From an uncultured Ignavibacteriales bacterium (GTDB lineage: Bacteria > Bacteroidota > Ignavibacteria > Ignavibacteriales > Ignavibacteriaceae), in assembly GCA_903843135.1 (NCBI GenBank), contig CAIMOS010000126.1, positions 17,201 through 81,200 of the forward strand: DNA of 64,000 bases. The letters are read 5' to 3'. Every line of letters begins with the position of its first letter. The stretch's first letter is position 1. The notes under the pieces were generated by a model. That model saw nothing but the letters and a program-made list of their open reading frames with translations. It was not told the origin of the DNA and did not search any database. Both the position numbers and the translations under genes were made by a program. Shown here piece after piece: positions 26,675-50,538 of the stretch.

Positions 26675-26842
26675 TGGGGTCCTTAATAAAGTTTAAATGC
26701 TGAGCTAAATATAATAAGTCCGGAGAAAACCTCGATGTTAAATTTCGGTAAAATTTATACCGGAAATTTTGGAGGGGAAAAAACTGCCTTTTAATTTTAT
26801 GGTCAGGTCAGCTTGCCGGGAGGGCCATTTTACGGAAAGTTT

Positions 26843-26874
26843 AAAATAAAAACTCCGGCGCGGGGCCGGAGTTT
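26843..26874 (-). terminator. Rho-independent terminator of 26897..28480
   Basis: The stem is aaactccggc / gccggagttt with a 5-nt loop, followed by a U-rich run on the minus strand. Confidence 0.75.
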
Positions 26875-26896
26875 GAAATGCAAAATTAGGTTTAGA

Positions 26897-30111: not shown

Positions 30112-30129
30112 ATAAAAAAGGACCCTTTT

Positions 30130-31954: not shown

Positions 31955-31955
31955 T

Positions 31956-33413
31956 TCAGTTTTCAACCGGCAGATAAACCTTAAATGTTGTTCCCTTTCC
32001 GGGGGCGCTCTCGACTTCAATCTTGCCGTTGTGCGATTCGATGATGCCAAGACAAACAGATAGCCCGAGCCCGGTACCTATGCCAATTTCTTTAGTTGTA
32101 AAAAACGGATCAAAAATTTTCTTCAGAGTTTCGGGATCAATGCCTGAACCGTTATCACTGACTTCAATGAGAATTCTGCCGCCTGTAACTCCGGAAGTTG
32201 AAATTGTAATTGTGCCTTCTTTTTCAATAGCATCAAAGCTGTTCAGCAGAAGGTTCATTATTACTTCCTGGAAAAGATGGTAATCTATTTTGACGGGCGG
32301 TAAGTCTTTCCCATAATTCAGCTTGATTTGAAGTTTATTGTCCTTCAGGCGGTAATCAAAAAGCGTAACAACCTTATCAATTGATTCATTCACGTTTATC
32401 GTTGTTTCCGATTTTGACTGCTGGCGGGCGAAACCGAGAAGTTTTTTTACGACTGTCTCGATATTTTCGATTCCTTCATTGATAAGTTCAGAGTACTCTT
32501 TTGTCTGGACCACATTTCCCGGATCTTTTTTAATCGCGTAAAGACAGGACTTGATTCCGTTCAGAGGGTTGTTAACCTGGTGCGCCACACCTGAGGCAAG
32601 CCTCCCGATGGAAGCCAATTTTTCAGCCTGATAAACCTGTTTTTGTGCTTTCTCAAGATCAGCTTTTGAATTCTCCAGCCTTCTCTTCAGCAATCCGAAA
32701 TTATGATAAAGAAAACCTATCTCATCGTTTTGTACTGGAAGTGAAATGTCCCTGTCAGAAAAGAGATCGATCTTATCCATTTCAACTACAAGTTTCTCGA
32801 GGGAGTACGTAAGGTGGTTCACGGAGTAATAAAGTATCAGAAGGACAACCGAAGTAAGTATAATTGTAGATAATAACAAAATCAAAAAGAGGCTGCTTAT
32901 TTCGTCCCGTATAGGCTGCGCATCGAAACCAATTTTAATAGAACCCCAGTTCTTGCCTGAGAGCAGCATCGGCAGTGTACACTGAATTGTCCAGCCGGAT
33001 TCGGGGTGGTTAAAAATACTCACAACCCCGGCCTGTTCTTTCCCTTCATCAAATTTATCATCGTGCGGAGTGTTAATTCCGGTTCCGCTGACCGAGTGCG
33101 ATGCGATCGGAATAGCGTTCTGGTCGTAAACGGTGACGTATTTTACATTTTCGAGATGGTTAATAAAATCATTGATATATGTCTCAAGAATTTTCTCTTT
33201 CTGAAAAACGCTGTTCTGTTCAAAGATTAGCGCGTCAACGATAGTGACGGTAAAAGTGCGGCTTACCGCGTATGCATTCTCCGTCTCCTTGCTGATGATA
33301 ATATCGCGCCACTGAAGAAGTATAACAACAGAAATCAGAAGCATTAACGTAACAAGTACTGAACCTGTTGAAAACAGAATGCGTGTTTTTAGGCTTGACT
33401 TCAGTATAAACAT
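31956..33413 (-). CDS. Sensor histidine kinase with periplasmic domain (TM - about 150-aa ectodomain - TM - HAMP-like - HisKA - HATPase)
   Basis: 485 aa. The H-box is LASGVAHQVNNPLN (NtrB/AtoS style), the N-box is LLLNSFDA, and the G-boxes are DNGSGI and GTGLGL. Confidence 0.9.
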   Translation of the reverse strand: MFILKSSLKTRILFSTGSVLVTLMLLISVVILLQWRDIIISKETENAYAVSRTFTVTIVDALIFEQNSVFQKEKILETYINDFINHLENVKYVTVYDQNAIPIASHSVSGTGINTPHDDKFDEGKEQAGVVSIFNHPESGWTIQCTLPMLLSGKNWGSIKIGFDAQPIRDEISSLFLILLLSTIILTSVVLLILYYSVNHLTYSLEKLVVEMDKIDLFSDRDISLPVQNDEIGFLYHNFGLLKRRLENSKADLEKAQKQVYQAEKLASIGRLASGVAHQVNNPLNGIKSCLYAIKKDPGNVVQTKEYSELINEGIENIETVVKKLLGFARQQSKSETTINVNESIDKVVTLFDYRLKDNKLQIKLNYGKDLPPVKIDYHLFQEVIMNLLLNSFDAIEKEGTITISTSGVTGGRILIEVSDNGSGIDPETLKKIFDPFFTTKEIGIGTGLGLSVCLGIIESHNGKIEVESAPGKGTTFKVYLPVEN

Positions 33414-33420
33414 AACTGCC

Positions 33421-34383
33421 TCACTTACCTATCTGGCGCAGAATGTTGTAGTCGCTGTCCGAGGCTTCAACAAAACCGTAGATAAATTCGCTGTCCCATT
33501 CTTTCGTAATTATCTGATATGCTGGATTTCTGCCGTTAACATCCATAAGTGACTTTTTAATGGCACTCACTATGCTGGCATCGAAATTTGGGGCCACTAC
33601 TATCGGGGATGTCGGGATGGGGTCCGAATATAAAATAACTCTTATGGAATCCCTGTTCGGAAGATTTTTTACCAGAAACTCCCTTGTTACACCGGCATCG
33701 TAGTAACTGTTGTAGACCTGATATATAACGCTCTGGTGATGAGGGAAATTATCTGCGGAAGCAAGATCGGAGTAGTTAATGCCGTATTTCGGGAACTCGT
33801 GCCTGATAAGCCAGTTTGCCGAGAATGATTCTTTGGAAGGAAGCGCCAGCCTCCGGCCTTTAAGATCTTTGAGGTTATATAAGTTAGATGAACGTTTTGT
33901 AAATAGTACGGTCCTGGAGTAGGGTTCGAAATTTTCGTTCAGCGGCTTTAAAATCGGGAGTACGCCGTACTGTTTATGAGCGTCAAGATATACGTAGGAT
34001 CCAAGAAATGCGGCGGCGGTTTCACCGTTTATCAGCATCCGGACTGCCTCACTGTAATCTGTACTTAGTTTCAGTTCAAAACGGTAACCGGTTTTTGAAG
34101 TCATATAATTCAAAAGAGGCTGGTAACCCCTGTAGATTATATTCGGCGGGTAACGGGATATAACGCCGATATAGACGAGCGGCTTTTTCAGATCAGCTTC
34201 GCTCGGCGGGACAGCGGCATTGCTGACTTTATACTCCCCCGAAATATTGAGCGAATATTTGTAAAACAAAACAGTGAAGACAGATGCTGTTACAAACATC
34301 AGAATCAGCACTGTTACCAGTTTTTTTGTGATCATTTTAAGTCTGGAAAAATCAATTTTATTCAAATACATTGAAAATTCCAT
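33421..34383 (-). CDS. Membrane-anchored PhnD-like (phosphonate-type) periplasmic solute-binding protein, sensor partner of the kinase
   Basis: It has an N-terminal TM anchor followed by a PF12974-like pattern (IGVISRY.P......YQPL..Y......Y.FEL....Y...V..L..GE...AFLGS..Y). It lies 7 bp upstream of the HK gene. An alternative start is at 34335. Confidence 0.75.
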   Translation of the reverse strand: MEFSMYLNKIDFSRLKMITKKLVTVLILMFVTASVFTVLFYKYSLNISGEYKVSNAAVPPSEADLKKPLVYIGVISRYPPNIIYRGYQPLLNYMTSKTGYRFELKLSTDYSEAVRMLINGETAAAFLGSYVYLDAHKQYGVLPILKPLNENFEPYSRTVLFTKRSSNLYNLKDLKGRRLALPSKESFSANWLIRHEFPKYGINYSDLASADNFPHHQSVIYQVYNSYYDAGVTREFLVKNLPNRDSIRVILYSDPIPTSPIVVAPNFDASIVSAIKKSLMDVNGRNPAYQIITKEWDSEFIYGFVEASDSDYNILRQIGK

Positions 34384-34446
34384 ACCAAGATATTTTCATA
34401 GCTAATTGTCAATTTTTCGACGTTTGGTAACGATAAATTCAGGAAG

Positions 34447-34465
34447 TGACGATGAAAAGTCGTCA
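34447..34465. promoter_or_regulatory. Inverted repeat TGACGA-N7-TCGTCA, candidate binding site for the adjacent sigma-54 activator
   Basis: Read directly from the sequence. It is flanked by the direct repeat AAGTGAC x2. It lies in the divergent intergenic region, about 100-118 bp upstream of the TGGTAC element. Confidence 0.3.
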
Positions 34466-34564
34466 AGTGACTAAATTTCGTCATTTTACATATCTACAAT
34501 ATGACTTTTTCTGAAGAAAAGCAATAATTAACGGGCGAATATGGGCTTTTTTCCCGTGATATAG

Positions 34565-34579
34565 TGGTACGATAATTGA
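34565..34579 (+). promoter_or_regulatory. Candidate sigma-54 (-24/-12)-like element upstream of the nine-gene operon
   Basis: The sequence is TGGTAC-gataa-TTGA with correct GG-to-12 spacing. It shares TAATTGAA with the 5251 element. It has two departures from TGGCAC-N5-TTGC, including the -12 C. It sits 50 nt before ATG 34629. Confidence 0.25.
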
Positions 34580-34628
34580 ATTAAAATTGTGATTAAAAAC
34601 TAACAAATTATATATAAGGAAGTTCACT

Positions 34629-35213
34629 ATGGCCGAGATAATACCACGTTGGGAATGGCGCACATTTACAAATGATCTGGGTAAAGCTGAGGAAAACATC
34701 CGGAAGCACCCCGAAGGAAAAACCCGCGAAAGTTCTGAAGTCTATATTTTATCTGAAGTCAGTATGGATAATACTAAAGTCCGTGACGATTTAATGGATA
34801 TTAAAACTCTTCAGCAGGTAAACGAAGACCATTTGGAATTGTGGCTCCCCATAATGAAGGGCTCGTTTCCGCTTCCCGTGGCAGAGATCGAGAAGGTCTT
34901 TAAGTGTTTCAGAGTGTCCCTGCCAAAGTTCGAACGAACCGAATACACCTTCCGCCAGTATATCGATGAAGTGATTAAACCATCCAAATTATTAAGAGCC
35001 GTAGACGTTCATAAAAAAAGAACCGGTTTCACAATTAATAATTGTATCGTAGAGATAGCAGAAGTCACGGTCGACGGAAAAGTGATCAAAACAGCGGCGG
35101 TTGAGATGGAAGATCCCGCATTAGTGATAAAGACCGTCAGGGAATTAGAATTAGATACTTTCCCGAATGTTAATTACCTCCGCGGCCTGAAAAATATGGT
35201 AGGAATGAAGTAA
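34629..35213 (+). CDS. Divergent CYTH-like protein, copy 2
   Basis: 194 aa. By eye about two-thirds identical to 29536..30111, and the first 15 aa are nearly identical (M.EIIPRWEWRTFTNDLG). Confidence 0.55.
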   Translation: MAEIIPRWEWRTFTNDLGKAEENIRKHPEGKTRESSEVYILSEVSMDNTKVRDDLMDIKTLQQVNEDHLELWLPIMKGSFPLPVAEIEKVFKCFRVSLPKFERTEYTFRQYIDEVIKPSKLLRAVDVHKKRTGFTINNCIVEIAEVTVDGKVIKTAAVEMEDPALVIKTVRELELDTFPNVNYLRGLKNMVGMK

Positions 35214-35223
35214 GGATATAATT

Positions 35224-35703
35224 ATGGCAAATGAAATAGAACGTAAATTTTTAGTAAAAGGTGAATTTAAGAATCTCGTCAGCAAGTCGACCCGCATTGT
35301 TCAGGGTTATCTGTCATCGGTTCCCGAAAGAACGGTCAGAGTGCGCATAAAAGGCGATAAGGGGTTTATCACCATCAAAGGTATCGGTAATGCTTCGGGA
35401 GCCTCAAGGTATGAGTGGGAAAAAGAAATTCCGTCTTCAGAAGTTGAAGAACTGCTCAAGATATGCGAACCGGGTGTTATCGATAAGACGCGTCACCTGG
35501 TAATCAGCGGGAACCATACTTTCGAAGTTGATGAGTTCTACGGAGAGAACGAAGGCTTAACACTTGCAGAAATCGAACTTAGCTCTGAAACTGATTCATT
35601 TAATAAGCCTGAATGGCTTGGTGAAGAAGTTACAGGGGACACTAAGTACTACAACTCGATGCTGATGAAGAACCCGTTCAAAAACTGGGGAAAGAATAGT
35701 TAA
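35224..35703 (+). CDS. CYTH-domain protein (triphosphate tunnel metalloenzyme), copy 2
   Basis: 159 aa with the EIERKFLVKGEF start. By eye about three-quarters identical to 30130..30597. Confidence 0.85.
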   Translation: MANEIERKFLVKGEFKNLVSKSTRIVQGYLSSVPERTVRVRIKGDKGFITIKGIGNASGASRYEWEKEIPSSEVEELLKICEPGVIDKTRHLVISGNHTFEVDEFYGENEGLTLAEIELSSETDSFNKPEWLGEEVTGDTKYYNSMLMKNPFKNWGKNS

Positions 35704-35826
35704 AAGGTTAGAGTTAAGAGTGAAGAGTTGCCGGAGAAGCTGCGGGGACAATATGGCTGCATCAAAGGCGGCTCTTATAACTCTTAATGATTATTTCAGA
35801 GAAGCTATCAATCAGAATATTATTAT

Positions 35827-37422
35827 ATGACGCATTTTGATCCGCTCGATATGCACAATTACCGTATCGAGAAACTTCCTAAAAGAGAAAAGACAAAGGT
35901 CCAGAAAATACTCGCGGTTATCGGCCCTGTGCTTGCGGCCGCTGCATTTATTTTACTCAGCTACGTCTTTAAGTTTCAGTTTTTACAATCCATTAATCCC
36001 GCAGATCTTGTGTCGGATGCAGCGAAGGACGCTTTTGATAAAATAGGCGCCGAAGCCTTCAGCAGAAATAATCATATTATGCTTGGGATATTCACGGCAT
36101 CCATTATACTGTGGATGACGGAAGCGATTCCTAACTACCTTACGTCGCTGATACTAATAATAAGCCTGGTGCTTACAGGAGTTCTTCCGGAAAAGAACGC
36201 TTACGCGCAGCTCGGGCATACGGTTATGTGGCTTAATATAATGTCCTTTGTGCTTGCAAGTATGCTCGTTGCAACAGGGCTGGCAAAACGTTTCGCTTTA
36301 TGGTTGATAGTAAAATTCGGAAAAAACGCTAGTACCATTTTTATAAGCTTCCTCATTATAAATGTAATTCTGTCAGTATTTATTTCTGCCACGACTGCAA
36401 AGGCAGCAATATTGCTTCCTATTTTTATGGTTATCGCGGCCATTTACGGAGCTACCGGCGGTGAGAACAAAAACAAATTCGGAAGAAGCATCGTGCTTCA
36501 GAATTTGCTTCACATAAATATCGGAGCGAGCGGGTTCCTGACAGGCTCGGGCGCGAATTTACTTGCCGCGGCACTGATCGGCGGCGCTATCGGCGGAAAG
36601 ATATTTTTCTCTGACTGGATGATGGCGATGTTCCCCGTGATGCTTTGCCTGATGTTCCTGGGCTACATCCTGGCGCTCAAAGTGTTTTTCCCGCTCTCGC
36701 CGGAAGAAAGCGTGCCGCAGATTGAAGGCGGAATGCAGCGCCTGAAAGATGAATATATAAAACTCGGCAAGATGAGCCTGATTGAAATAAGAGCGGCAAT
36801 TATTTTTATTGCTATTCTGACTTTGTGGACAACGGATAAAATGCACGGTATCAGCCCGACCGCGGTTGCTTTTCTCGGAGCGATTATTGCACTGCTGCCG
36901 CGCATCGGAATTGTTAAATGGAACGATGTTGATATCCCCTGGCACCTGATGCTGTTTTCAGCAGGCGCGTATGCGCTGGGCGCGGGGCTGGACGCAACGG
37001 ATCTTCCTTTACTTTCGATTAAGTCTCTTTTTGACGCGCTTGGCATCGGCAGCGAAACACATTTCTCAGTGCTTTATCTTATCCTTACCGGAGTAATGAT
37101 CTTCAGCGCCGTCTTCTTCCAGTCAAAAACTATGCGCGTGATGATCTTTATTCCAATTGCGATCGGGGTTGCAAACCGTTTTGGGTTCAGTATAATAAGC
37201 CTTGCTCTCCCTGTTGCGTTTATGACAGAACACGTTTATGTATTGCCCTTTAACAGCAAACCTGCCGCTTTACTGTATGAAACCGGCCATTATACAATGT
37301 CTGATACATTTAAGTTTGGTTTCACAATTATGGTTGCTGCCTGGCTGCTAAATATAGTCGCCGGAGAAACCTGGTTCAGATTTTTAGGGATTACGCCAAA
37401 CGGCGTATTCGGTTTATTCTAA
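35827..37422 (+). CDS. DASS/SLC13-family anion permease (divalent anion:Na+ symporter superfamily)
   Basis: 531 aa with about 12-14 TM. Duplicated hairpin-type motifs are present (ISATTAKAAILLPI and a second-half equivalent), a layout typical of SLC13/ArsB-NhaD-fold permeases. Confidence 0.75.
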   Translation: MTHFDPLDMHNYRIEKLPKREKTKVQKILAVIGPVLAAAAFILLSYVFKFQFLQSINPADLVSDAAKDAFDKIGAEAFSRNNHIMLGIFTASIILWMTEAIPNYLTSLILIISLVLTGVLPEKNAYAQLGHTVMWLNIMSFVLASMLVATGLAKRFALWLIVKFGKNASTIFISFLIINVILSVFISATTAKAAILLPIFMVIAAIYGATGGENKNKFGRSIVLQNLLHINIGASGFLTGSGANLLAAALIGGAIGGKIFFSDWMMAMFPVMLCLMFLGYILALKVFFPLSPEESVPQIEGGMQRLKDEYIKLGKMSLIEIRAAIIFIAILTLWTTDKMHGISPTAVAFLGAIIALLPRIGIVKWNDVDIPWHLMLFSAGAYALGAGLDATDLPLLSIKSLFDALGIGSETHFSVLYLILTGVMIFSAVFFQSKTMRVMIFIPIAIGVANRFGFSIISLALPVAFMTEHVYVLPFNSKPAALLYETGHYTMSDTFKFGFTIMVAAWLLNIVAGETWFRFLGITPNGVFGLF

Positions 37423-37446
37423 CATTTATTAGGTTGAATTAAAAGG

Positions 37447-38085
37447 ATGTTTCTAAAAAAGACAAAGAAACTTGAGGCCCAGATTGATGAATATCTTGAT
37501 CTTGTCATCAAAGGCGGACTGGTATTCAAGCTCGGAATAAAATGCTATTTTGACGCCCAGCCTGATGACTTTGAAGGCCACTTAAAAGACCTCCGCAAAA
37601 TAGAAGAGCGCGCGGATGACCTGAGGCGGAACATTGAGATAAAACTCTACACGCGCACTTTAATTCCTGAGGCAAGGGGCGATGTGCTCGGTTTGCTCGA
37701 AAGCTGCGATAAAGCCCTTAATATAACCGCGGATACACTCCTGGAATTTTCAGTGGAAATCCCGAATCTGTTCCCTGAACTAAAATCTGATTTCCTTGAG
37801 ATTGCTGAGAGTTCAATCTCCTGCCTCGAAAACACTGTAAGCGGTATCCGCTCCTATTTCAAAAATATCGATGCTGTAAGAGACTATATTATTAAAGTGC
37901 AGTTTTATAAAAAGGAGACCAATAAGATTGCGGAAAAGATAAAGCGGACAATTTTCAGGTCCGAGCACGAACTTAGCAATAAGATACACGCGCGATATTT
38001 CGCATTTCATATTGAGAGGATCGCGGAACAGTCGGAAGATGTTTGCGATAAACTTTCTATCGCTATAATTAAAAGGTTCGAATAG
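37447..38085 (+). CDS. DUF47 / PhoU-like phosphate transport regulator (TIGR00153 type)
   Basis: 212-aa all-helical protein immediately upstream of PiT, with a 2-bp gap. This is the classical DUF47-Pit pairing. Confidence 0.75.
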   Translation: MFLKKTKKLEAQIDEYLDLVIKGGLVFKLGIKCYFDAQPDDFEGHLKDLRKIEERADDLRRNIEIKLYTRTLIPEARGDVLGLLESCDKALNITADTLLEFSVEIPNLFPELKSDFLEIAESSISCLENTVSGIRSYFKNIDAVRDYIIKVQFYKKETNKIAEKIKRTIFRSEHELSNKIHARYFAFHIERIAEQSEDVCDKLSIAIIKRFE

Positions 38086-38087
38086 AG

Positions 38088-39578
38088 TTGGATATCTCAG
38101 TCTGGTTTTACATATCCAGCGGATTATTTCTTGGCTGGTCGCTAGGCGCCAACCACGCCGTGAATGTTTTCGGAACCGCGGTGGTTTCAAAGATGGTGAG
38201 ATTTCGGACGGCGGCCATAATAGCGGGCGTCTTTGTTATACTTGGTTCAGTGGTCAGCGGAGGAGGAACGACAAAAACAATTACAGATCTCGGCGCAATC
38301 AACGCTATCGCGGGCAGCTTTTCTGTTGCGCTTGCCGTCGGTATATCTGTAACGCTTATGACGAAGGCCCAGTTGCCCGTTTCGACATCGCAGGCAGTGA
38401 TCGGGGGAATTATCGGATGGAATTTATTTACAGGCTCACCAACAGACTACAGTTCACTCAACAAGATTTTATTCAGCTGGATTGCAAGCCCTATTATTGC
38501 CGCGATTTTCGCTTTTCTCATCTTTAAGCTTATCAAGCATACTGTTCTGAAATGGAGGATTCACCTCCTTGAACTGGATAACTACACGAGGGTCGGATTA
38601 ATAGTTGTCGGAGCGCTGGCGTCCTACTCTCTCGGAGCCAATAATATTGCCAACGTAATGGGTATGTTCAGTTCAGCGCCTCTTTTCAGCGATCTTAGTA
38701 TTTCGGGCTTCCTGAAAATCACCGGCGTGGAGCAGTTGTTCTTCCTTGGCGGACTGGCGATTGCAATCGGTATTTTTACTTACGGCGACCGCGTGATGGA
38801 AACCGTAGGCACTGACCTTTACAAGATTTCGCCGATAACCGGATTTGTCGTAGTCCTTTCAGAGTTTATTGTGCTTACTCTGTTTACATCCCAGACCCTG
38901 GAAGCGTTCCTCCTGAGGAATAATCTGCCGTCTTTTCCACTTGTTCCGCTCTCTACCACACAGGCGTTCATCGGCGCGATAATCGGTGTTGGTATGGCGA
39001 AAGACCCTCTGTCTATTGATTTCAGGGTGTTAGGGAAAATAGCAATCGGCTGGGTGATTGCCCCTTTAAGTGCAGCGCTGATCACTTTTATTTCGCTATT
39101 CTTTATTCAGAATGTATTTGAACAGAAAGTAGTATACCCGGTGCCGTACGAAATAACCTCTACGGTCATCACGGAGATGAAGAGCGAAGGAATAGATACG
39201 TCCGGATTAGCGGATATTACAGGGAAGAGGTTTTTTAATAAAAAGAACTTCAGGGATGAATTATACGCAAGGAATAAATACACGAACAAAGAAATGTTTA
39301 CCATTTTTAATCTTGCCCTTGTCGACAGTTTTAAAGTTGATACTGTACTGTTCAGGAGTTATCCGGAACTTTACCGTTACACCAGTGATCAGAAAGCTGC
39401 AATTATGACCAGGCAAGGAGAAGCGTTCAGCCATAAGATTGATTTTCATAAAGCAGTTCTCTCTGATTCCGCCTGGAAACAGTCCGGGAATAAACTTTTT
39501 GACAGGGAACTGGAAGACAAAATAAATGCAATTGAAGAACTCTTCAGAGTTAAACCGGATAAAAAACAAATAAAATAA
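38088..39578 (+). CDS. pit: Inorganic phosphate transporter, PiT (PHO4) family, with about 150-aa C-terminal cytoplasmic extension
   Basis: The two PiT signature repeats GANHAVNVFGTAV and GANNIANVMG are present, with about 10 TM and a TTG start. A hydrophilic tail runs from about 39125. Confidence 0.85.
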   Translation: MDISVWFYISSGLFLGWSLGANHAVNVFGTAVVSKMVRFRTAAIIAGVFVILGSVVSGGGTTKTITDLGAINAIAGSFSVALAVGISVTLMTKAQLPVSTSQAVIGGIIGWNLFTGSPTDYSSLNKILFSWIASPIIAAIFAFLIFKLIKHTVLKWRIHLLELDNYTRVGLIVVGALASYSLGANNIANVMGMFSSAPLFSDLSISGFLKITGVEQLFFLGGLAIAIGIFTYGDRVMETVGTDLYKISPITGFVVVLSEFIVLTLFTSQTLEAFLLRNNLPSFPLVPLSTTQAFIGAIIGVGMAKDPLSIDFRVLGKIAIGWVIAPLSAALITFISLFFIQNVFEQKVVYPVPYEITSTVITEMKSEGIDTSGLADITGKRFFNKKNFRDELYARNKYTNKEMFTIFNLALVDSFKVDTVLFRSYPELYRYTSDQKAAIMTRQGEAFSHKIDFHKAVLSDSAWKQSGNKLFDRELEDKINAIEELFRVKPDKKQIK

Positions 39579-39630
39579 AACTAATAATTATCACATACAT
39601 TAAATAAAACTCTAATCAAAGGATGATGTT

Positions 39631-40929
39631 ATGAAAAACAGACACAATTACTTTGCGGTTATTCTGATCGCAATAGTTATGATGAGCTTCGGAAATCTTC
39701 TGGCTCAGGATTCAAAGGTTCCTGGCGGGAAAGAAGCGAAGCCTCTTGGTGCTGAAGTGCGCAACGGTAAACTTGTATTTGAATCTGAAGACGGCGATTT
39801 CCGCTGGTGGTTCGATTCAAGAATCCAGTTTGACGGAGCGATGTATTTTGGTACGGATTTTGTCTCCGAAACTAAAAATGCGATGAGTAACGGTTTCTTC
39901 TTCAGAAGAGCGACTTTCGCGTTGAAGGCAATACTCTATAAGGACTGGGAAGCTGAATTCGATATGGATTTCCGTGAAGACTCGGACGTGGATGAGCAGA
40001 ATGAGATGCGGGATATGTGGATCAAATACAATGTACCTGATATGAATATGTCTTTTATGGTGGGACATTTCAAAGAGCCGTTCGGACTTGAGAGAATTAA
40101 CAGTTCACGGTTGCTTACTTTTCTTGAAAGGTCTTCACTCTCAAGCGCAATCCCGATGGGAAGAAGGGTCGGCGCTTTAGTTCGTTATTGGACGGACTGG
40201 TTCCAGGTATCTGCAGCTCTAATGGGCCACGAACCCGGTACACGCATTGATAAAGGCCAGAGAGATGAAGGGTACTCAACAAACCTCAGAACCAGCTTTG
40301 CTCCGATCAATGATTTCGGGCATACACTTCATCTCGGAGTCGCCGGTTCTTATAAAATTCCTGACGCGACATCTGAGCTGCGCACAAATACAATCGAGGT
40401 AAGTTCTAGAACCGAATCATATATGTTTGACCCCAAATTCTTGCATACCGGTGATATTGCAGACGTAAACTATTATCTGCGCGGCGGCGCTGAATTTATG
40501 TATATCAACGGTCCGCTCTATTTACAGACTGAAGTAATGGGAATGCAAGTCGAGAGATTTTACGGCAAACCGCAGGTTAAACTCGGCGGCGGATACATTA
40601 CTGTTGCATATATGCTTACCGGTGAGACCCGTTACTACTATGTAGATGAAGGCGAAGTCGGACCGATTGAAAAACCGCTCAATTCTTGGGGCGCTTTAGA
40701 ACTTGCTATGAGATACACACACACCGATCTGAATGACCTTGAAGCAGGCGTCAAAGGCGGTATGGTTAATCAGTATACATTAGGATTAAACTATATTCCG
40801 AATCCGAATATTAAAATACAACTTAACTATTCTTTGGTAAATCTTGATCAGTACGCAACCAGGAAGGGAAACCTTATTGGTGATGATGACCACGCGTTCT
40901 TACAGATCAGATTCCAGGCTTCATTATAA
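39631..40929 (+). CDS. Phosphate-selective porin O/P family outer-membrane protein
   Basis: 432 aa with a signal peptide. The Porin_O_P-like pattern is F.W.FDSRIQ.D, FF.RRA....K......W.AEFD.DF, KEPFGLE and a terminal aromatic-rich beta strand. Confidence 0.8.
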   Translation: MKNRHNYFAVILIAIVMMSFGNLLAQDSKVPGGKEAKPLGAEVRNGKLVFESEDGDFRWWFDSRIQFDGAMYFGTDFVSETKNAMSNGFFFRRATFALKAILYKDWEAEFDMDFREDSDVDEQNEMRDMWIKYNVPDMNMSFMVGHFKEPFGLERINSSRLLTFLERSSLSSAIPMGRRVGALVRYWTDWFQVSAALMGHEPGTRIDKGQRDEGYSTNLRTSFAPINDFGHTLHLGVAGSYKIPDATSELRTNTIEVSSRTESYMFDPKFLHTGDIADVNYYLRGGAEFMYINGPLYLQTEVMGMQVERFYGKPQVKLGGGYITVAYMLTGETRYYYVDEGEVGPIEKPLNSWGALELAMRYTHTDLNDLEAGVKGGMVNQYTLGLNYIPNPNIKIQLNYSLVNLDQYATRKGNLIGDDDHAFLQIRFQASL

Positions 40930-40949
40930 TTATTAAAGGAAACTTAAAA

Positions 40950-41870
40950 ATGAGAAAATTATTTTTGGCCTTACTTTTTATTCTTCCTATGGTGTTCACC
41001 TCTTGTTCAAGGGATGAACCTGCATTACCGGTTACTCCTCCGCCTCCTGTTGTGGAGAAAATAAAAATCAATGAAGTGTACTCACGTGGCGATACGACTG
41101 ATGCCGACTGGATTGAAATCTATAATACAGGAAGCAGTGCGATTGATATCTCCGGCTATAAGATTTACGACAATGGAGGGCAGAGTGGTTCTAAACCGAA
41201 AAAAGTATTTCCTGCTGGGACAGTTGTTGCCTCAAACGGATTCTTTGTAATTACGGTTGACGATACCGCCTCTTCCGGATTTGGACTTTCCAGCAGCGGT
41301 GAGCAAGTCTGGCTCGAAAAGGCAGACGGTACGGTTATCGACTCTGTGGTTTTTCCGGCGCTTGGCATAGATTCTACTTATGGGAGAAGAGGCGACGGAG
41401 CCTCTAATTGGGAAATCATTTTCCCGAAAACAAAAGGCATAACAAACGGCGGCGTCAACACTCAGCCTCTGGTAATGAACGAAATATTCTCGCGCGGAGC
41501 GGATCCGAATTTTGACTTCATTGAAATTTACAATCCCAACACCTTTGCTGTGGATCTGAATGGTTATAAAATTTATGACGGCGGCGGAAATGCGGGAACT
41601 AAACCTAAAATGCTGTTCCCCGCCGGCGCTTCAGTTCCAGCCCGTGGATTCTATGTTATAGTTGTTGACGATGCCGCGGTGGAAGGGAACTTCGGAATCG
41701 GCAGCGGCGGAGATGAAGTTTGGTTTGAAAATCCCACCGGTATAGTGATCGATCACCAGATCGTTCCTGCAATGCCGGTCGTGACCACCTCGTATTGCAG
41801 AATTCCGGATGGAAGCACCACCTGGCAAATCGCAAGTACGATAACCAAAGGGCAGCCAAACCAGCCCTGA
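40950..41870 (+). CDS. Lipoprotein with two lamin-tail domains (LTD)
   Basis: The lipobox is VFTSC. There are two repeats of INE.YSRG......D.IEIYN......D..GYKIYD.GG..G.KPK..FPAG..V...GF.VI.VDD. Confidence 0.8.
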   Translation: MRKLFLALLFILPMVFTSCSRDEPALPVTPPPPVVEKIKINEVYSRGDTTDADWIEIYNTGSSAIDISGYKIYDNGGQSGSKPKKVFPAGTVVASNGFFVITVDDTASSGFGLSSSGEQVWLEKADGTVIDSVVFPALGIDSTYGRRGDGASNWEIIFPKTKGITNGGVNTQPLVMNEIFSRGADPNFDFIEIYNPNTFAVDLNGYKIYDGGGNAGTKPKMLFPAGASVPARGFYVIVVDDAAVEGNFGIGSGGDEVWFENPTGIVIDHQIVPAMPVVTTSYCRIPDGSTTWQIASTITKGQPNQP

Positions 41871-41912
41871 TTTTTTTAACGGAGGGCCGGCTAATTCCGG
41901 TCCTCCGATAAT

Positions 41913-42704
41913 ATGATTAGCAAACAAACGATGAAAAAAAATATTTCTATTCTCTATTTCACTGCGATTGTAGTCATCATAATTTACTTGCTTCTGCAGG
42001 CAGGCTGCTCGAGAAATGAACCGTATGTTGCTGTGACACCGTCCACGATTCAGAAAATTATTCCCATCAACACTTATGTGTTGGATGTTTCTGAGCCTTC
42101 CGGTCTGGCGTATAACGCAGTAAATAATACATTGATGGTTATCTCCGACAGCCATCCGGAAATCTATGAAATCAGCCTTAACGGGACTACGCTGAACACG
42201 ATACCCGCTTCCGGCAGTGATATGGAAGGCATAGCCCTTTCTAAAAACTGCGATACAGTTATTGTTGTTGAGGAAAGGATCAGAAGCGTAACATCATTTG
42301 CCCTCAACGGAGCCAAATTAGACACCATTATTGTAGATGTTGCTGTCCTTGGAAATAGCGGACTTGAAGGTGTAACTTTCAATCATACGGGCAGACAAAT
42401 GTTCGTCCTGAATGAGAAAGATCCAAGAATGCTGTTATGTTATGAAAATTTAACTAAGAAATGGCAGAAAAATCTTGATTACACCGGGGATGTTTCGGAT
42501 GTTTGTTATGAAGAATCCACAGGTTTTTTGTGGGTAATAAGTGATGAATCGAGGATGATATTAAAACTGTCATCCACTGGAACACTTATCAAACAGTGGG
42601 AAATTCCATTTTCAAAAGGGGAGGGAATTGCAATTGTTGGGGATAAGATTTACGTGGTAAATGACCAAGACGGAAAAATGTATGTCTTTCATAAACCAAA
42701 TTAA
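41913..42704 (+). CDS. SdiA-regulated (YjiK-like) beta-propeller lipoprotein
   Basis: The lipobox is LLQAGCS. The block EPSGLAYN...NTL.VISD...EIYEISL.G......P..GSDMEGIAL matches the PF06977-type pattern. A probable alternative start is at 41931. Confidence 0.7.
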   Translation: MISKQTMKKNISILYFTAIVVIIIYLLLQAGCSRNEPYVAVTPSTIQKIIPINTYVLDVSEPSGLAYNAVNNTLMVISDSHPEIYEISLNGTTLNTIPASGSDMEGIALSKNCDTVIVVEERIRSVTSFALNGAKLDTIIVDVAVLGNSGLEGVTFNHTGRQMFVLNEKDPRMLLCYENLTKKWQKNLDYTGDVSDVCYEESTGFLWVISDESRMILKLSSTGTLIKQWEIPFSKGEGIAIVGDKIYVVNDQDGKMYVFHKPN

Positions 42705-42743
42705 ATATGTGTTATAATTCAGAATTATTTTAACGGAGATATC

Positions 42744-43898
42744 GTGAAAAAAAATCTAACTCTTTTCTGCGTTCTTATATCGATCTTCTTTGGTGTACAA
42801 AGCGGATTAGCCCAGACTGCGCTTATGAACGAAATTTATTCCAGGGGAATTGTTACAGCTCCTGACTGGATAGAAATTTATAATCCAACAGCGGCAAATA
42901 TTGACCTTACCGGTTACAAAATATACGACAGCGGCGGACAGGCAGGCACAAAACCTAAAAAAGATTTACCTGCAGGTACAATTATTCCGCCATACGGATT
43001 CTTTGTGATGGTTACTGACGATACAACCGCCAGCGGTTTTGGCCTCTCAAGCGGCGGCGAAAAAGTATGGTTGGAGAATGCCTCAGGAACTATAATTGAC
43101 ACTATAACTTTCCCGGCTATGGCTACCGACCAGACTTACGGCCGTTATCCCGACGGAAGTGCTTATATGAAACTGACAAAGAAATTAACGCGCGGTTACG
43201 CAAATGCTTATATCAAAATCAACGAAGCTTACTCACGCGGCGTTGTGACTGACCCGGACTGGGTTGAGATCTATAACCTTTCTCCTGATGCAGTTGACCT
43301 TACCGGTTACAAAATATATGACAGCGGCGGACAGGCAGGCACAAAACCGAAAAAGGAAATACCTGCAGGCACTATTATCCCGGCTAACGGATTCTTTGTT
43401 ATCGTTACTGATGACACTACCGCGAGCGGTTTCGGACTTTCAAGCGGCGGTGAAAAAGTATGGCTTGATGATTCAGCAGGCGTTCTGTGTGATTCTATGG
43501 CTTTCACGGCGATGACCGAGGTTCAGTCCTACGGCAGATATCCTGACGGCACCGCCAATATGCAGATTCTGCCCGTGATCACCCGCGGCACGGCTAATTC
43601 CATCACCGGTATTTTTGATAACGACGGTCTGATAAACTCATTCAGTTTAGGCCAGAATTATCCTAATCCGTTCAATCCATCTACGAGTATCAGTTTTACA
43701 ATTCCTTCAACAGGATTTGTATCTCTAAAGGTTTACAATGTGCTTGGCAAAGAAGTTGCTACGATAATTAACGGAATGAAAAACAGCGGAAGCTATACGG
43801 TTCAGTTTGACGCTCACGGGCTCAGCAGCGGTATCTATTTCTATCAGCTTAATGCGGGTAACTTAACAGCCACAAAGAAATTTGTTGTAACTAAATAA
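42744..43898 (+). CDS. Secreted protein with two lamin-tail domains and T9SS C-terminal sorting domain
   Basis: It has a GTG start, a signal peptide, and two LTD repeats nearly identical in motif to those of 40950..41870. The C-terminus is QNYPNPFNPST...VYNVLGKE...GIYFYQL. Confidence 0.85.
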   Translation: MKKNLTLFCVLISIFFGVQSGLAQTALMNEIYSRGIVTAPDWIEIYNPTAANIDLTGYKIYDSGGQAGTKPKKDLPAGTIIPPYGFFVMVTDDTTASGFGLSSGGEKVWLENASGTIIDTITFPAMATDQTYGRYPDGSAYMKLTKKLTRGYANAYIKINEAYSRGVVTDPDWVEIYNLSPDAVDLTGYKIYDSGGQAGTKPKKEIPAGTIIPANGFFVIVTDDTTASGFGLSSGGEKVWLDDSAGVLCDSMAFTAMTEVQSYGRYPDGTANMQILPVITRGTANSITGIFDNDGLINSFSLGQNYPNPFNPSTSISFTIPSTGFVSLKVYNVLGKEVATIINGMKNSGSYTVQFDAHGLSSGIYFYQLNAGNLTATKKFVVTK

Positions 43899-43941
43899 TC
43901 CTCATCTTAGTGAATTAAGCAGTTCAATCTGCAGAGTGATC

Positions 43942-43968
43942 AAAGCCCCGGTACGCCGGGGTTTTTTA
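43942..43968 (+). terminator. Rho-independent terminator closing the nine-gene operon
   Basis: The stem is (aaag)ccccgg / ccgggg(tttt) with loop tacg and a T6 run. Confidence 0.8.
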
Positions 43969-44009
43969 TTTACCTGATCTGATAAGTGTGTGAATAGCTG
44001 AGATCTGAC

Positions 44010-44774
44010 TTAATTATTTATCACGATACCGTTGCTGAAGATCTCCAGCGTTTGCTGACGGCTGTTTACAACCGCGAATGAATTCTGCTCAGGATTAAAA
44101 GTCATACCGCTGTAATTTTTGCCGGGAAGGTGGATGCGCTGAAGTTCTGCCTTTAAGGGGTTCCATCTGTAGATCATTTCAGACTGATAGCTGAGAAGGT
44201 AATAATTCCCTTTGGTGTTATCGAAATAAATTTCAGAGGCATCCGGAGTGAAATAGAAATTATACTGCTGTTCAATGTTCCCATCGGAATTCATTTTTAT
44301 CATTGAAGGAGGGGCAGCCTCATTCAGTACATAAAGTGTACTTCCTTCACCGCAGAATATTCCGCCCGGTATTTTATTTCCACCTTTTCCGCCGGCAATA
44401 TGCAGCCGTTTCTTAACTTCACCGCTGAGCGAGAGATTCACCAATTCTCTTTTCTTTTTTTCTGTGATCCATAGTGTGCCGGAACTGCGCTCAAGAGAAA
44501 TTGAAGTAATTCTGTTACCCGTATAGGGCAGAACTTCAATAACATTACCTTCAAGGTCCGTTCTAACTATCTTGCTGTTGCCGCCGTCAACGATCCAGAA
44601 ACCGGTATAGTCGATAGTGTAAGTTATCCCGGCGGGATTATCAATGTTCAGCTTAAGTTCCTGAATCTGAGTTAATGCGGGCGAAATAATTTGCCCGTCG
44701 CTTTGCCTGCAGGCAAGGTTAACCAACATCATCGCAGCAGCCAGACCAAACAAGCGTCCATATCTGAAAAACAT
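44010..44774 (-). CDS. Beta-propeller lipoprotein, distantly YjiK/NHL-like
   Basis: The lipobox-like sequence is LVNLAC. Blade-like segments repeat (NPAGITY...G.W.VD......I.R.DL.GNV). It is convergent with the LTD operon. Confidence 0.5.
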   Translation of the reverse strand: MFFRYGRLFGLAAAMMLVNLACRQSDGQIISPALTQIQELKLNIDNPAGITYTIDYTGFWIVDGGNSKIVRTDLEGNVIEVLPYTGNRITSISLERSSGTLWITEKKKRELVNLSLSGEVKKRLHIAGGKGGNKIPGGIFCGEGSTLYVLNEAAPPSMIKMNSDGNIEQQYNFYFTPDASEIYFDNTKGNYYLLSYQSEMIYRWNPLKAELQRIHLPGKNYSGMTFNPEQNSFAVVNSRQQTLEIFSNGIVINN

Positions 44775-44992
44775 AAGCTAAATTTCTTTATAATAATTCA
44801 AAAAATCTTCCTGATATGGATATGCCAAAAACTATGCCAGACAATTTGATCCGGAATCAAAGATATTTTGTTATTTGAGGCGGGGAAAGGGGAATACCCC
44901 TGCAATATATGCACGAATTTGCATTATCGCGCAAAATTTTCGCAGTTTAGAGCTTATCCTCGGAATAATTTCCTAAGATAATTGTTAAAGGT

Positions 44993-46987
44993 TTACAAAT
45001 TTTCGCAGCTAACATTTAATTTATAACCTCTTCCGCACAGAACCGTGAACCAGAAGGTAGCGCCTTTACCCGGATCGTTCTCGAGCCAGATCTTTCCGCC
45101 GTTCTGTTCAATCATTTCTTTACAAAGCAGCAGGCCCAGGCCGGCGCCGCGCTCTCCGTCCGTGCCTTTGGTTGTGACGTGCTCGCCAAGTTTAAAAAGC
45201 TTGTCTGCTACTGCATCCGGCACTCCTGCTCCTGAATTTCTCACACCTATCCGGACAAGGGAGTCCTCCTTAGTAATTAAAATATTTATACTGCCGTTCT
45301 GCGGAGTGAATTTCAGGGCATTCGAAACCAGGTTATGTACCACACTGTATAAGGCAGGTTCATCGGCCACTACCAGGCAATCTTCCGGGATCTCTTCGCT
45401 GAAGGAGATATTTTTGCTGAGAAAAGTGGTCTCAAAAGTTGCTGCTACAGATTTTACTGTCTCCTTAAAAGAGTGGACCGCGGGATTTGGCTTTGCTCTT
45501 TTCATCTGATAAGACGCCCACGCAAGCAGGTTTTCGAGCAGTTTACTCATTCCTTTAAGAGTATCATAAATTTTCCCGACTGCCTCTATTCTCCCCTTGT
45601 CGGAAAGCTCATCATAATCATCCCTGAGGATTTCAGTATAAGACATAACCCCCCACATCGGATTTTTAAGATCGTGCGCAATTATGGAAAAGAACTTATC
45701 CTTTGCCGCATTCAGTTCTGAAAGTTCTTCCCTCTGTGAATCAATTATTCTGTTCTTTTCGTTCAGATTGTCATTTGCTTTCTTTAATTCCCGGCGTCTT
45801 ATGAACTGCAGGGCGGCGATGGTCAGAGCGAGCAGAATTATAAATGAGAGCCCTATTGTTGAATTGATATATGTCTTCTTTTCATAATAAAGTTTCTCTT
45901 CATTGTGCTCGAGTTCACGGTCGACAGACTGCCTCATAAGTTCAAATGAATATTCATTTCTGAGAAGGGCTGTCTGAATCAAGTATGCCTTCGTCAGATA
46001 TTTTAACGCGTTCTCTTCGTCCCCCGCCCGGGTATAGATTTTTGATATACGGTCATAGGATTCAAGATGGAAAATCGGATCCCCGGTCTTTTCCAGCAGC
46101 GTATCTGCTGCCAGTACAGCGTTTACCGCCTGAGCGTATTGGCCTTTCCGGGCCAGCAGATTACTGTAATTCCTGAGTAATTCCATCAGGTTATCTTTTT
46201 GGTTGTTTCGCTCGGCGAGCCGGATTCCCCGGGAAAAAAGCTTTTCTGCTTTTGTGTATTCACCAGTGTGGGTATAGAGCGAAGCAAGAATATTGATATT
46301 GGAGAGCGCGAGGAAGTCCGCCTCCGGAGTTTTTCCGCCGTCAGGAAAAGCTGAAGCGTAATATAAAGTGGAATCCTGGTACAGTTTGTGTATCCAGAGT
46401 TTATTAACGGAATCGTACCGGGCATTTTTATCCGTAGAATCGAAGTGGGCATAAACAGGCTGAAAATTTATCAGCATTTCAAAGTATACTGCCGCCAGGC
46501 GGTTGCAGATTTTCGGCCTGTATTTTTTCAACGCCTCATCATCAGTTTTTTTAAGCGCGGAATATAGATACGCGAGCGCAAGGGGACGCTGGCCGCTTGC
46601 GCGGCAGGTTTCACCCAGATTGCTCAGAATTCCGATTTCCTGGCGCCTGTTCCCGGAATTTCCTGCATACTTAAGAGCGAAATTTAAATTATCGATTGCA
46701 TTAGTGTAGTTCCGGAGCTCAAGCCATTTATTTCCCAGTAAGAGATGCAGTTTCATTATAGTGGAATCATCGCCGGCTTCGCGGGCAATTGCCAGGCCAA
46801 CGCTGGCAAGCGGTATCGAAGTCGAAAGTTTCAGATCATTATCAGATTCAAGGATCCTTACGATTTCGGCAAGTTTATCTTTTTCCGGGCTGATCGCTTC
46901 AATTTTTGCGAGAACGGAATCCAATTCTGCGAACACAAAGGGGGCCAGGAACAGGAACAGTAGTATTGATCTGAAAAATAATCTCAT
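44993..46987 (-). CDS. TPR-repeat sensor histidine kinase (same architecture as 8982..11054)
   Basis: 664 aa with a signal peptide, a TPR ectodomain and one TM. The H-box is FFSIIAHDLKNP, the N-box is VHNLVSNALKF, and GAGLGL follows. Confidence 0.85.
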   Translation of the reverse strand: MRLFFRSILLFLFLAPFVFAELDSVLAKIEAISPEKDKLAEIVRILESDNDLKLSTSIPLASVGLAIAREAGDDSTIMKLHLLLGNKWLELRNYTNAIDNLNFALKYAGNSGNRRQEIGILSNLGETCRASGQRPLALAYLYSALKKTDDEALKKYRPKICNRLAAVYFEMLINFQPVYAHFDSTDKNARYDSVNKLWIHKLYQDSTLYYASAFPDGGKTPEADFLALSNINILASLYTHTGEYTKAEKLFSRGIRLAERNNQKDNLMELLRNYSNLLARKGQYAQAVNAVLAADTLLEKTGDPIFHLESYDRISKIYTRAGDEENALKYLTKAYLIQTALLRNEYSFELMRQSVDRELEHNEEKLYYEKKTYINSTIGLSFIILLALTIAALQFIRRRELKKANDNLNEKNRIIDSQREELSELNAAKDKFFSIIAHDLKNPMWGVMSYTEILRDDYDELSDKGRIEAVGKIYDTLKGMSKLLENLLAWASYQMKRAKPNPAVHSFKETVKSVAATFETTFLSKNISFSEEIPEDCLVVADEPALYSVVHNLVSNALKFTPQNGSINILITKEDSLVRIGVRNSGAGVPDAVADKLFKLGEHVTTKGTDGERGAGLGLLLCKEMIEQNGGKIWLENDPGKGATFWFTVLCGRGYKLNVSCENL

Positions 46988-50491: not shown

Positions 50492-50538
50492 TTTATTATA
50501 ATCTTAATATTTTAATTTAAAAATTAACCCGTTTAAAT

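Follow-up and report, generated by a model that had tools for sequence, protein, structure and literature searches.

A candidate substrate-sensing, non-Pho operon for the uptake of orthophosphate, and probably of condensed phosphate, in Ignavibacteriales and bacteria of other phyla

Introduction

Textbook bacterial phosphorus uptake rests on PhoBR, Pst and Pit, and the use of external condensed phosphates beyond periplasmic hydrolysis is an unresolved problem. Here we analyse a locus that bears on this problem, a nine-gene operon (34629-43898, + strand) for anion carriers, putative phosphoanhydride hydrolases, a porin and surface proteins, together with three divergently transcribed regulator genes. 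It lies in a 64,000-nucleotide stretch of contig CAIMOS010000126.1 (assembly GCA_903843135.1) from an uncultured Ignavibacteriales bacterium. This whole stretch is called the window, and coordinates refer to it unless a related locus is named. An earlier note, made from the sequence letters, had proposed the nine genes as one phosphate-acquisition unit.

The closest described regulators are the three-component systems AioXSR, ArrXSR and ArxXSR, in which a PhnD-like binding protein is encoded together with a histidine kinase and sigma-54 activator beside the target operon, without ABC transporter partner genes, and the target is a molybdoenzyme for arsenic respiration. ArrX is an arsenate-binding and, more weakly, phosphate-binding sensor, and the related PtxB and HtxB are phosphite binders (PMC5908839).

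For the structural genes, parallels come from several directions. Eukaryotes combine a DASS-fold carrier and a tunnel-fold protein in phosphate handling, namely the SPX-DASS carriers Pho87/90/91 and the tunnel-fold polyphosphate polymerase VTC4. Pho90 is a phosphate-specific DASS carrier (PMC13394699). Among bacterial tunnel-fold enzymes, a Tyr-28/Lys-52 dyad has been named for the specific triphosphatase NeuTTM, the physiological role of which is not known; on what substrate specific inorganic triphosphatases act in the cell is also an open question (PMC3440374).

We propose that the twelve genes and their cis elements form one regulated unit, a substrate-sensing, non-Pho operon for the uptake of orthophosphate and probably also of condensed phosphate, and we put the probability of this reading at roughly 55%. 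Its parts are known, the regulator type from arsenic respiration and the DUF47-PiT pair and OprO/P porins from Pho regulons. The novelty lies in how they are combined, in control by a sigma-54 three-component system, in the family of ORF1, and in variant subfamilies of DASS and TctCBA that are linked to polyphosphatases. Literature searches on the gene combination, on lamin-tail domains (LTD) with phosphate, on tripartite tricarboxylate transporters (TTT) with polyphosphate, and on Ignavibacteria with phosphate found no description of the operon.

Gene content of the operon and its regulators

Nine co-oriented open reading frames (ORFs) on the + strand are separated, in order, by gaps of 10, 123, 24, 2, 52, 20, 42 and 39 bp. 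ORF1 (34629-35213; 194 amino acids, aa) encodes a predicted triphosphate-tunnel-fold protein, and ORF2 (35224-35703; 159 aa) a CYTH enzyme. They are followed by genes for a non-canonical DASS-family anion carrier (35827-37422; 531 aa), a DUF47/PhoU_div protein of the kind that usually partners PiT (37447-38085; 212 aa), a PiT-family phosphate carrier (38088-39578; 496 aa) and an outer-membrane anion-selective porin of the OprO/OprP family (39631-40929). The last three genes encode a lipoprotein with two LTD domains (40950-41870), a YjiK/SdiA-regulated beta-propeller lipoprotein (41913-42704), and a secreted protein with two LTD domains and a C-terminal sorting domain for secretion by the type IX system (T9SS) (42744-43898). 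Gene calling done independently on public metagenome contigs of identical sequence yields the same nine genes. A predicted intrinsic terminator (43942-43965, +), with a 10-bp stem of which 6 pairs are G-C, followed by TTATTT, is the best terminator-like site within 33000-45500. On these points the earlier note stands: its nine co-oriented ORFs with gaps of 2-123 bp, its terminator after the last gene and its EIERK motif in ORF2 were all recovered. The families it named (CYTH, DASS, DUF47, PiT, porin, LTD, YjiK, T9SS) were all matched in Pfam or NCBIfam, and signal peptides and lipoboxes are visible in the N-termini of its exported proteins.

Directly upstream, on the opposite strand, lie three tightly packed genes (30611-34383, -). 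The distal one (30611-31954, -; 447 aa; Pfam, gene call) encodes a response regulator of the sigma-54 enhancer-binding type, with receiver, AAA+ and Fis-type helix-turn-helix domains (Response_reg 1e-29, Sigma54_activat 2e-70, HTH_8 4e-10 in Pfam) and the motifs GESGTGK and GSFTGA. The middle one (31956-33413, -; 485 aa) encodes a sensor histidine kinase (HATPase_c 7e-28, HisKA 7e-8, sCache_3_2 2e-4 in Pfam), in which a Cache-like periplasmic domain, judged by eye, lies between two hydrophobic segments. The gene nearest to the operon (33421-34383, -) encodes a putative periplasmic oxyanion-binding protein of the PhnD/ArrX type, with an N-terminal membrane anchor (Phosphonate-bd 2e-50 in Pfam). 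Its closest solved structure is ArrX, at a modest 6e-18 and 69 bits, followed by PtxB and HtxB and then by AioX. No ABC permease or ATPase gene adjoins it in a Pfam scan of the window ORFs and in the gene calls, and we therefore read it as a sensor.

In 16 orthologues the pocket motifs of this protein are retained, namely GYQP, ES-F-S, HHQ and DAGV, which include its Tyr, Ser-x-Ser, His and Asp. Residue equivalences to ArrX and AioX, as well as those to VcINDY and OprP/OprO given below, come from low-identity alignments. Where ArrX has Cys in the segment FICTY, all 17 sequences have Gly (FLGSY), the same as PtxB. AioX Cys106 corresponds to Gly65 in PhnD (PMC5908839), and the ArrX Cys is taken, from the ArrX alignment, as the probable equivalent of AioX Cys106. 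The pocket Cys that is typical of the arsenic-sensing subfamily is absent from the binding protein in this low-identity alignment.

By sequence, the regulator architecture is of the AioXSR/ArrXSR three-component type: the PhnD-like binding protein, kinase and sigma-54 activator genes adjoin the target operon, which is preceded by a sigma-54-type promoter (below), as in those systems. It differs from AioXSR, ArrXSR and ArxXSR in its target, an operon for phosphate transport and hydrolysis rather than a molybdoenzyme for arsenic respiration, and in the Gly at the position taken as the Cys106 equivalent. Among the larger ORFs scanned in the window there is no phoB/phoR, pstSCAB or phoU, in line with the earlier view that this is not the textbook Pho layout, although that view had overlooked the actual regulator. 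In contrast to the Pho regulon, control here is apparently exerted through sigma-54 and a ligand-binding sensor.

Conservation across genomes

For comparison, one genome per GTDB species was scanned with a 10-sequence ORF1 alignment, which returned 80 loci. A set of 81 loci, with +/-10 kb per locus, was mapped by tblastn with the twelve window proteins and later with Ppx, TctCBA and NptA. The same gene order recurs in >30 species-level genomes of several phyla. The earlier note's claim that the nine genes form one unit is thus borne out in that they cohere, and falls short at its upstream boundary, as the unit extends beyond 34629 into the divergent regulator module, the promoter and the activator sites.

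Ignavibacteriota loci (L001-L026, L052; ORF1 54-94% identical) have the full layout wherever enough flanking sequence is present, i.e., regulator, kinase and binding protein on one strand and ORF1-CYTH-DASS-DUF47-PiT-porin-LTD-YjiK-LTD on the other. Calditrichota loci (L028, L034, L040, L043) keep the regulators, ORF1, CYTH, DUF47, PiT, porin, LTD, LTD and YjiK, and a KSB1 locus (L029) reads ORF1-CYTH-TctCBA-DUF47-PiT-NptA. Krumholzibacteria and further lineages (L031, L035, L036, L044, L067) retain the DASS form, and two Holophagales loci (L057, L080) have the same genes rearranged. In Clostridia, Spirochaetia, Synergistota, Atribacterota and Cloacimonadota, the genes after ORF1-Ppx are TctC-TctB-TctA, with PiT-DUF47 or NptA-PhoU behind them in some cases. 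The combination of ORF1, a hydrolase and DASS or TctCBA spans at least eight phyla; DASS or TctA is linked in 50/81 loci and PiT or NptA in 36/81. The recurrent core is ORF1, CYTH or Ppx, DASS or TctCBA, and a phosphate carrier with its PhoU-like partner.

The trio arrangement of the regulators is conserved in 26-28 of the 81 loci. In Clostridia, Spirochaetia, Acidobacteriaceae and other groups, the genes upstream of ORF1 are variable and unrelated and include neither a ppk nor a shared regulator; no ppk is linked in any locus examined. A Bacteroidota locus (L027, 6053-11500) carries the same regulator trio, GGCGA...TCGCC palindromes and promoter elements together with ORF1-Ppx, indicating that regulatory module and hydrolase have been recombined.

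Additional genes occur at some loci. In Calditrichota, a DUF498 (Mth938-like) gene stands between ORF1 and CYTH (L028:10649-11050, also L034, L040 and L043).

Promoter and activator sites

The divergent intergenic region upstream of ORF1 is 245 bp long. It contains a predicted sigma-54-type -24/-12 promoter, TGGTACGATAATTGA (34565-34579, +), which starts 64 nt before the ORF1 start codon, and, about 100 bp further upstream, an adjacent pair of candidate activator-binding palindromes, GACGATGAAAAGTCGTC (34448-34464) and GTGACTAAATTTCGTCA (34467-34483). The exact pattern GACGA-N7-TCGTC occurs in the 64-kb window only here (34448-34483).

When 35 related loci were searched with the pattern GG[CT]A[CT]-N5-[TA]T[GA], with shuffled sequences as control, 31 of them had a sigma-54 element at 47-121 nt upstream of ORF1, compared with 5% of the shuffles. 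The equivalent region of 25 loci holds 93 GACGA/TCGTC half-sites, against 10.5 +/- 3.1 in shuffles. In GC-rich lineages the half-sites take the form GGCGA/TCGCC, and they are also present in Melioribacteraceae loci whose regulator genes do not adjoin. Taken together, these predicted elements are arranged in the way that is classical for a sigma-54 promoter dependent on an enhancer, and the arrangement is conserved across phyla.

The only other match to the sigma-54 pattern in the window is TGGCACATTAATTGA (5251-5265, +), about 300 bp upstream of 2-oxoacid:ferredoxin oxidoreductase genes (5554-8013). In locus L001 of Melioribacteraceae these oxidoreductase genes are immediate neighbours of the regulator gene, which implies that about 22 kb have been inserted between them in the window genome.

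Two RNA-level features were noted as well. A 76-nt hairpin (35713-35788, +; -33 kcal/mol, z -2.6) occupies most of the 123-bp gap between CYTH and DASS; it has no T-run and is not conserved, the gap being only about 40 nt in the closest relative, and it could be a processing or stability element. An Rfam scan of the whole window gave no family at gathering score, so the 5' leader and this hairpin are not known riboswitches.

ORF1, ORF2 and the hydrolase link

ORF1 has no Pfam match even at E <= 1 and no NCBIfam match. Its AlphaFold model, built from 25 sequences, has eight strands and a predicted local distance difference test (pLDDT) score of 90. In a Foldseek search against the PDB, ranks 1-23 and most of the 33 matches with E <= 0.001 are triphosphate tunnel metalloenzyme (TTM)/CYTH structures, at a template modelling (TM) score of ~0.45-0.57, including thiamine triphosphatase, AtTTM3, SaTTM and bacterial 'CYTH' structures. 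The model thus predicts that ORF1 has the eight-stranded triphosphate-tunnel fold. VTC4, the eukaryotic tunnel-fold parallel, is not among the top 50 Foldseek matches listed.

In place of ExExK, the first strand of ORF1 reads R7-W-E9-W-R11, which is invariant or near-invariant in 39 diverse members. The invariant or near-invariant charged residues are R7, E9, R11, E37, R52, K59, E70, K129, R131, E142 and E159, and in the model their alternation along the strands is the pattern expected where a phosphate chain and metal are bound in a tunnel. The earlier description of ORF1 as CYTH-like consequently holds for the predicted fold and fails for motif and profile. The family comprises 1342 representative clusters at E <= 0.001 in an exhaustive HMMER search, none of them with a Pfam domain.

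ORF2, on the other hand, is a regular CYTH protein (Pfam CYTH 8e-14, 52.2 bits against a gathering cut-off of 23.2). It aligns over its full length with the NeuTTM (NE1496) structures 2fbl/3typ (1.5e-16), and the residues E4-I-E6-R-K8, Y29 and K52, which align to NE1496, are invariant in 14 orthologues. It matches NeuTTM and CthTTM in size, in carrying ExExK and the Tyr/Lys dyad, and in the acidic and basic tunnel residues that come later in the sequence, and on this basis it is judged to resemble the inorganic triphosphatase NeuTTM. It differs from both in sitting in a transport operon, which suggests a source for its substrate, whereas ORF1 has the fold in common with them and not the motifs.

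The two genes are closely tied. The gene after ORF1 encodes CYTH in 36 loci and Ppx-GppA (~305 aa, Pfam 1e-54 to 1e-66) in 40, i.e., in 76 of the 81 loci, and most of the five exceptions are contig ends. In high-GC lineages ORF1 is fused to the Ppx N-terminus. Compared with ppk-ppx operons and short Ppx-GppA proteins, the likeness is that ORF1 precedes or is fused to Ppx-GppA in most other phyla; the differences are that no ppk is linked here, that the hydrolase is tied to TctCBA or DASS and phosphate carriers, and that in the window CYTH stands in Ppx's place.

Several fused or displaced forms were recorded. ORF1 is the N-terminal domain of Ppx-GppA proteins or fragments in P0243, P0178, P0188, P0167, P0132 and P0205, for which cluster look-ups gave no protein names; one metagenomic fragment has it directly behind the end of a SulP anion carrier. 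The N-terminal fusion to Ppx and the SulP-linked position would suit a regulatory role of ORF1. P0243 has in addition an uncharacterised domain of ~250 aa after Ppx; the idea that these C-terminal 251 aa were a third, CYTH-like domain was dropped, as they have no Pfam match and no similarity to ORF1.

A second ORF1-CYTH pair (29536-30597, +), missed by the earlier note, is not part of the operon; the regulator genes, with which it is convergent, stand between the two. It consists of an ORF1 paralogue (29536-30111, +; 191 aa; 68% identity to ORF1; no Pfam match) and a CYTH paralogue (30130-30597, +; 155 aa; 77% identity to ORF2; Pfam CYTH 3.8e-13). Neither a sigma-54 element nor palindromes were seen upstream of it, and among the loci examined it is present in this species only.

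The DASS carrier and its TctCBA counterpart

The DASS carrier clearly belongs to its family (Na_sulph_symp 1e-54, 186 bits against a cut-off of 27; TIGR00785 'dass' 210 bits against 198.6). However, in low-identity alignment both SNT hairpin-tip motifs of VcINDY are altered, to S/P-A-T-x-A-K/R and S-K-T-M/A-R (SAT and SKT in the window), and the VcINDY segment TPPN reads N/S-S/A-K-P. These altered motifs and extra Lys/Arg residues are conserved across 19 loci and two DASS subtypes that are ~40% identical. N151 of the first SNT motif of VcINDY coordinates both Na+ and substrate (PMC13394699), and since both SNT Asn residues are replaced here, canonical Na+/dicarboxylate symport is unlikely. By fold and sequence the protein is thus a member of the DASS family and probably not a Na+/dicarboxylate symporter, and its extra basic residues favour a more highly charged anion. 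From Pho90, which is reported to be Na+-driven, it differs in the loss of the Na+-site Asn residues, in having no specific sequence relationship to it, and in lacking an SPX domain.

In other phyla the DASS slot is filled differently. Calditrichota have a TctC/TctB fusion and TctA in this place (Pfam 1.5e-31, 9e-17 and 1e-157), and KSB1 has TctCBA. Between Calditrichota and Clostridia, TctA is 50% and TctC 41% identical, which, given the great diversity of this receptor family, suggests that the linked TctA and TctC are one dedicated subfamily.

Loci with the second DASS subtype have an extra gene of ~226 aa between DASS and DUF47 (e.g., L001:12644-13324; equivalents in L008, L017, L019, L023-L026, L044, L052 and L067). 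Its product, for which Pfam gives no match, carries a signal peptide and, at the C-terminus, a membrane helix; the gene is absent from the window.

Phosphate carrier, porin and surface proteins

The DUF47 protein (PhoU_div 5e-17, 62 bits) and PiT (PHO4 3e-62, 211 bits; solved PiT 6l85 at 9e-23) are separated by 2 bp, and the translationally coupled pair resembles that of Pho regulons; the TIGR00153 equivalog cut-off was not reached (58.5 against 104.3). Unlike in Pho regulons, no phoBR, pstSCAB or phoU accompanies the pair, and PiT has an additional C-terminal domain. This cytoplasmic extension of ~150 aa (residues ~346-496; 39123-39578) gave no Pfam match and no homologues in a word-indexed protein search. 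It can be aligned in Ignavibacteriota, Calditrichota and Krumholzibacteria at 22-58% identity, compared with 50-88% for the membrane core.

The porin belongs to the Porin_O_P family (1e-52, 179.7 bits) and, over residues 46-419, is equidistant from OprP (2o4v, 3.5e-18) and OprO (4rjw, 1.4e-17). Like these, it retains the FRR arginine-ladder segment.

The LTD lipoprotein has two LTD stretches (4e-32) and the lipobox FTSC. The YjiK lipoprotein matches SdiA-regulated (3e-29, 102.6 bits) and Phytase-like (2e-11), has the lipobox QAGC, and aligns with the YjiK structure 3qqz over residues 62-263 (8e-5). The third protein matches LTD (2e-29), and its sorting domain (residues 306-382) matches Por_Secre_tail (3e-12, 47 bits) and TIGR04183 (1e-14, 54 bits). 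Lipoproteins and T9SS cargo encoded beside an outer-membrane channel recall Bacteroidota nutrient-capture loci, the difference being that no SusC/SusD pair is present here. Similarly, the LTD domains match those of ExeM-type nucleases, whereas the window proteins have no catalytic domain. As a side observation, a second YjiK-like gene was seen in locus L020, where it is co-oriented with the operon.

Proposed function and alternative explanations

In the proposed mechanism, the PhnD/ArrX-type binding protein would report a periplasmic phosphorus oxyanion to the histidine kinase, which would phosphorylate the sigma-54 enhancer-binding response regulator; the latter would bind the tandem GACGA-N6-7-TCGTC sites and fire the sigma-54 promoter of the nine-gene operon. 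The OprO/P-type porin would pass phosphate-type anions through the outer membrane, and PiT with DUF47 would carry orthophosphate through the inner membrane. The atypical DASS carrier, or TctCBA in other phyla, may transport another anion of higher charge, for which pyro-, tri- or short polyphosphate is the likeliest candidate. Cleavage of condensed phosphate in the cytoplasm would fall to the NeuTTM-like triphosphatase and ORF1 (elsewhere Ppx and ORF1). At the cell surface, the two LTD proteins (the lipoprotein and the T9SS cargo) and the YjiK propeller might make up an arm for binding or processing phosphorus from a polymeric or particle-bound source. The earlier note's division into three parts, with an arm at the surface, two carriers in the inner membrane and phosphoanhydride hydrolases in the cytoplasm, agrees with the confirmed families. 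Uptake induced by the sensor would fit the substrate-induced character of the known XSR systems. Import of condensed phosphate is suggested by the logic of catabolic operons, in which a carrier is encoded beside the cytoplasmic hydrolase of the imported compound. It may also be that the DASS carrier, free of the Na+ site, is a condensed-phosphate/orthophosphate exchanger.

The boldest form of this proposal, that the locus is the first dedicated bacterial pathway for importing condensed inorganic phosphate across the inner membrane and splitting it in the cytoplasm by ORF1 and CYTH or Ppx, is held here tentatively and at well below even odds. Several points weigh against the proposal as a whole. 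DASS and TTT families are best known for di- and tricarboxylates, and we know of no DASS or TTT carrier that moves condensed phosphate. PiT carriers are reversible, so that net export is possible. At the positions that set phosphate or pyrophosphate preference, which we take to be Y62/Y114 in OprP and F62/D114 in OprO, the porin has, in a low-identity alignment, Thr and Lys, which is neither type. The closest solved relative of the sensor, ArrX, prefers arsenate. ORF1 lacks the ExExK motif, and hhalign of ORF1 with CYTH gave a non-significant probability of 0.3%; its homology to CYTH is therefore argued from the predicted fold, and its role may be that of a ligand sensor and not of an enzyme. 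Within the cluster, conservation is lowest for the LTD/YjiK arm, which some versions lack. Moreover, LTD and YjiK have no established biochemical activity, and even for ExeM it has not been settled what LTD does (PMC6085458).

An explanation that needs orthophosphate only, unlikely in our estimate but the likeliest of the alternatives, would have porin and PiT take up phosphate on the sensor's signal while DASS or TTT moves an ordinary anion (a dicarboxylate, citrate or sulfate, for example) or exchanges phosphate for one. CYTH and ORF1 would then act in housekeeping proofreading or regulation, removing or sensing tri- or polyphosphate formed inside the cell during a phosphate flood. DUF47-PiT and OprO/P are orthophosphate or pyrophosphate systems by family, the closest solved relatives of the DASS carrier are dicarboxylate carriers and exchangers, and the places of ORF1 at the N-terminus of Ppx and behind SulP are typical of a regulatory domain; specific triphosphatases have also been proposed as metabolite-proofreading enzymes (PMC3440374). 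What this explanation leaves unaccounted for is that orthologous TctCBA or atypical DASS travels with ORF1 and a hydrolase in at least eight phyla, and that the DASS site has lost its Asn pair and gained conserved Lys/Arg residues. The same basic residues argue against plain dicarboxylates as substrate, and so against a distinctly less probable scheme in which the locus works in reverse as an energy module, as in polyphosphate-accumulating organisms. Stored polyphosphate would be hydrolysed by Ppx or CYTH with ORF1, and (metal) phosphate leaving through PiT and the porin would build up a proton motive force for organic-acid uptake by DASS or TTT. The reversibility of PiT, the classical role of DASS and TTT as carboxylate importers, the fit of Na+-site loss with an exchanger, and the occurrence of ORF1-Ppx-TctCBA in fermentative anaerobes (Clostridia, Spirochaetia, Synergistota) of phosphate-rich habitats all agree with such a scheme. 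However, an oxyanion sensor, a phosphate porin and surface LTD/YjiK proteins are more easily explained by uptake, and no examined locus has a linked ppk.

Two further explanations fare worse. The affinity of the sensor to ArrX and the AioXSR/ArrXSR architecture could mean that arsenate, or another oxyanion such as phosphite, is what is detected and that the operon adjusts anion traffic in response. Yet there are no arr, aio, arx, ars or ptx genes in the window or the related loci, the structural genes are all of phosphate families, the match to ArrX is modest, and Gly replaces the ArrX Cys in every one of the 17 sequences; with no linked arsenic genes and no Cys, we set this explanation aside as very improbable. 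It is hardly credible that the genes are no functional unit at all, i.e., that they adjoin by chance or form several independent transcription units. The stable hairpin in the 123-bp gap does split the CYTH pair from the transporters, and the surface-protein genes differ between lineages. On the other side stand the conserved order in >30 species of several phyla, a CYTH-DASS gap of ~40-110 bp in most relatives, the lack of a T-run and of conservation in the hairpin, and a single conserved sigma-54 promoter before ORF1.

If condensed phosphate is indeed imported, the pathway may, in phyla of the Fibrobacterota-Chlorobiota-Bacteroidota (FCB) group, be switched on through sigma-54 by a periplasmic substrate sensor, and NeuTTM-like specific triphosphatases would gain their missing physiological substrate. 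The SKT-type DASS carriers and the ORF1-linked TctCBA are nominated as candidate carriers for a new substrate class. Should this part prove wrong, new and well-supported annotations would still remain in the regulatory architecture and in the ORF1 family. Phosphate-carrier genes are placed under an apparently ligand-sensing sigma-54 three-component system in lineages that are common in sediments, soils and wastewater reactors, and a large unannotated tunnel-fold family is defined whose genes almost always stand beside that of a polyphosphatase.

Neighbouring features of the window

Downstream of the operon, a second gene for a YjiK/SdiA-regulated-like lipoprotein (44010-44774, -), with 20% identity to the product of 41913-42704 (E 3e-17), converges on the terminator hairpin 43942-43965, which may terminate transcription in both directions. 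Three consecutive genes at 23920-28480 (-) encode T9SS-sorted proteins, two of them with BNR/Sortilin-type propeller repeats. Finally, 48848-63983 (-) holds four hybrid histidine kinase genes in a row, two of them for very large proteins (1617 aa and >2129 aa) with many PAS and GAF domains.

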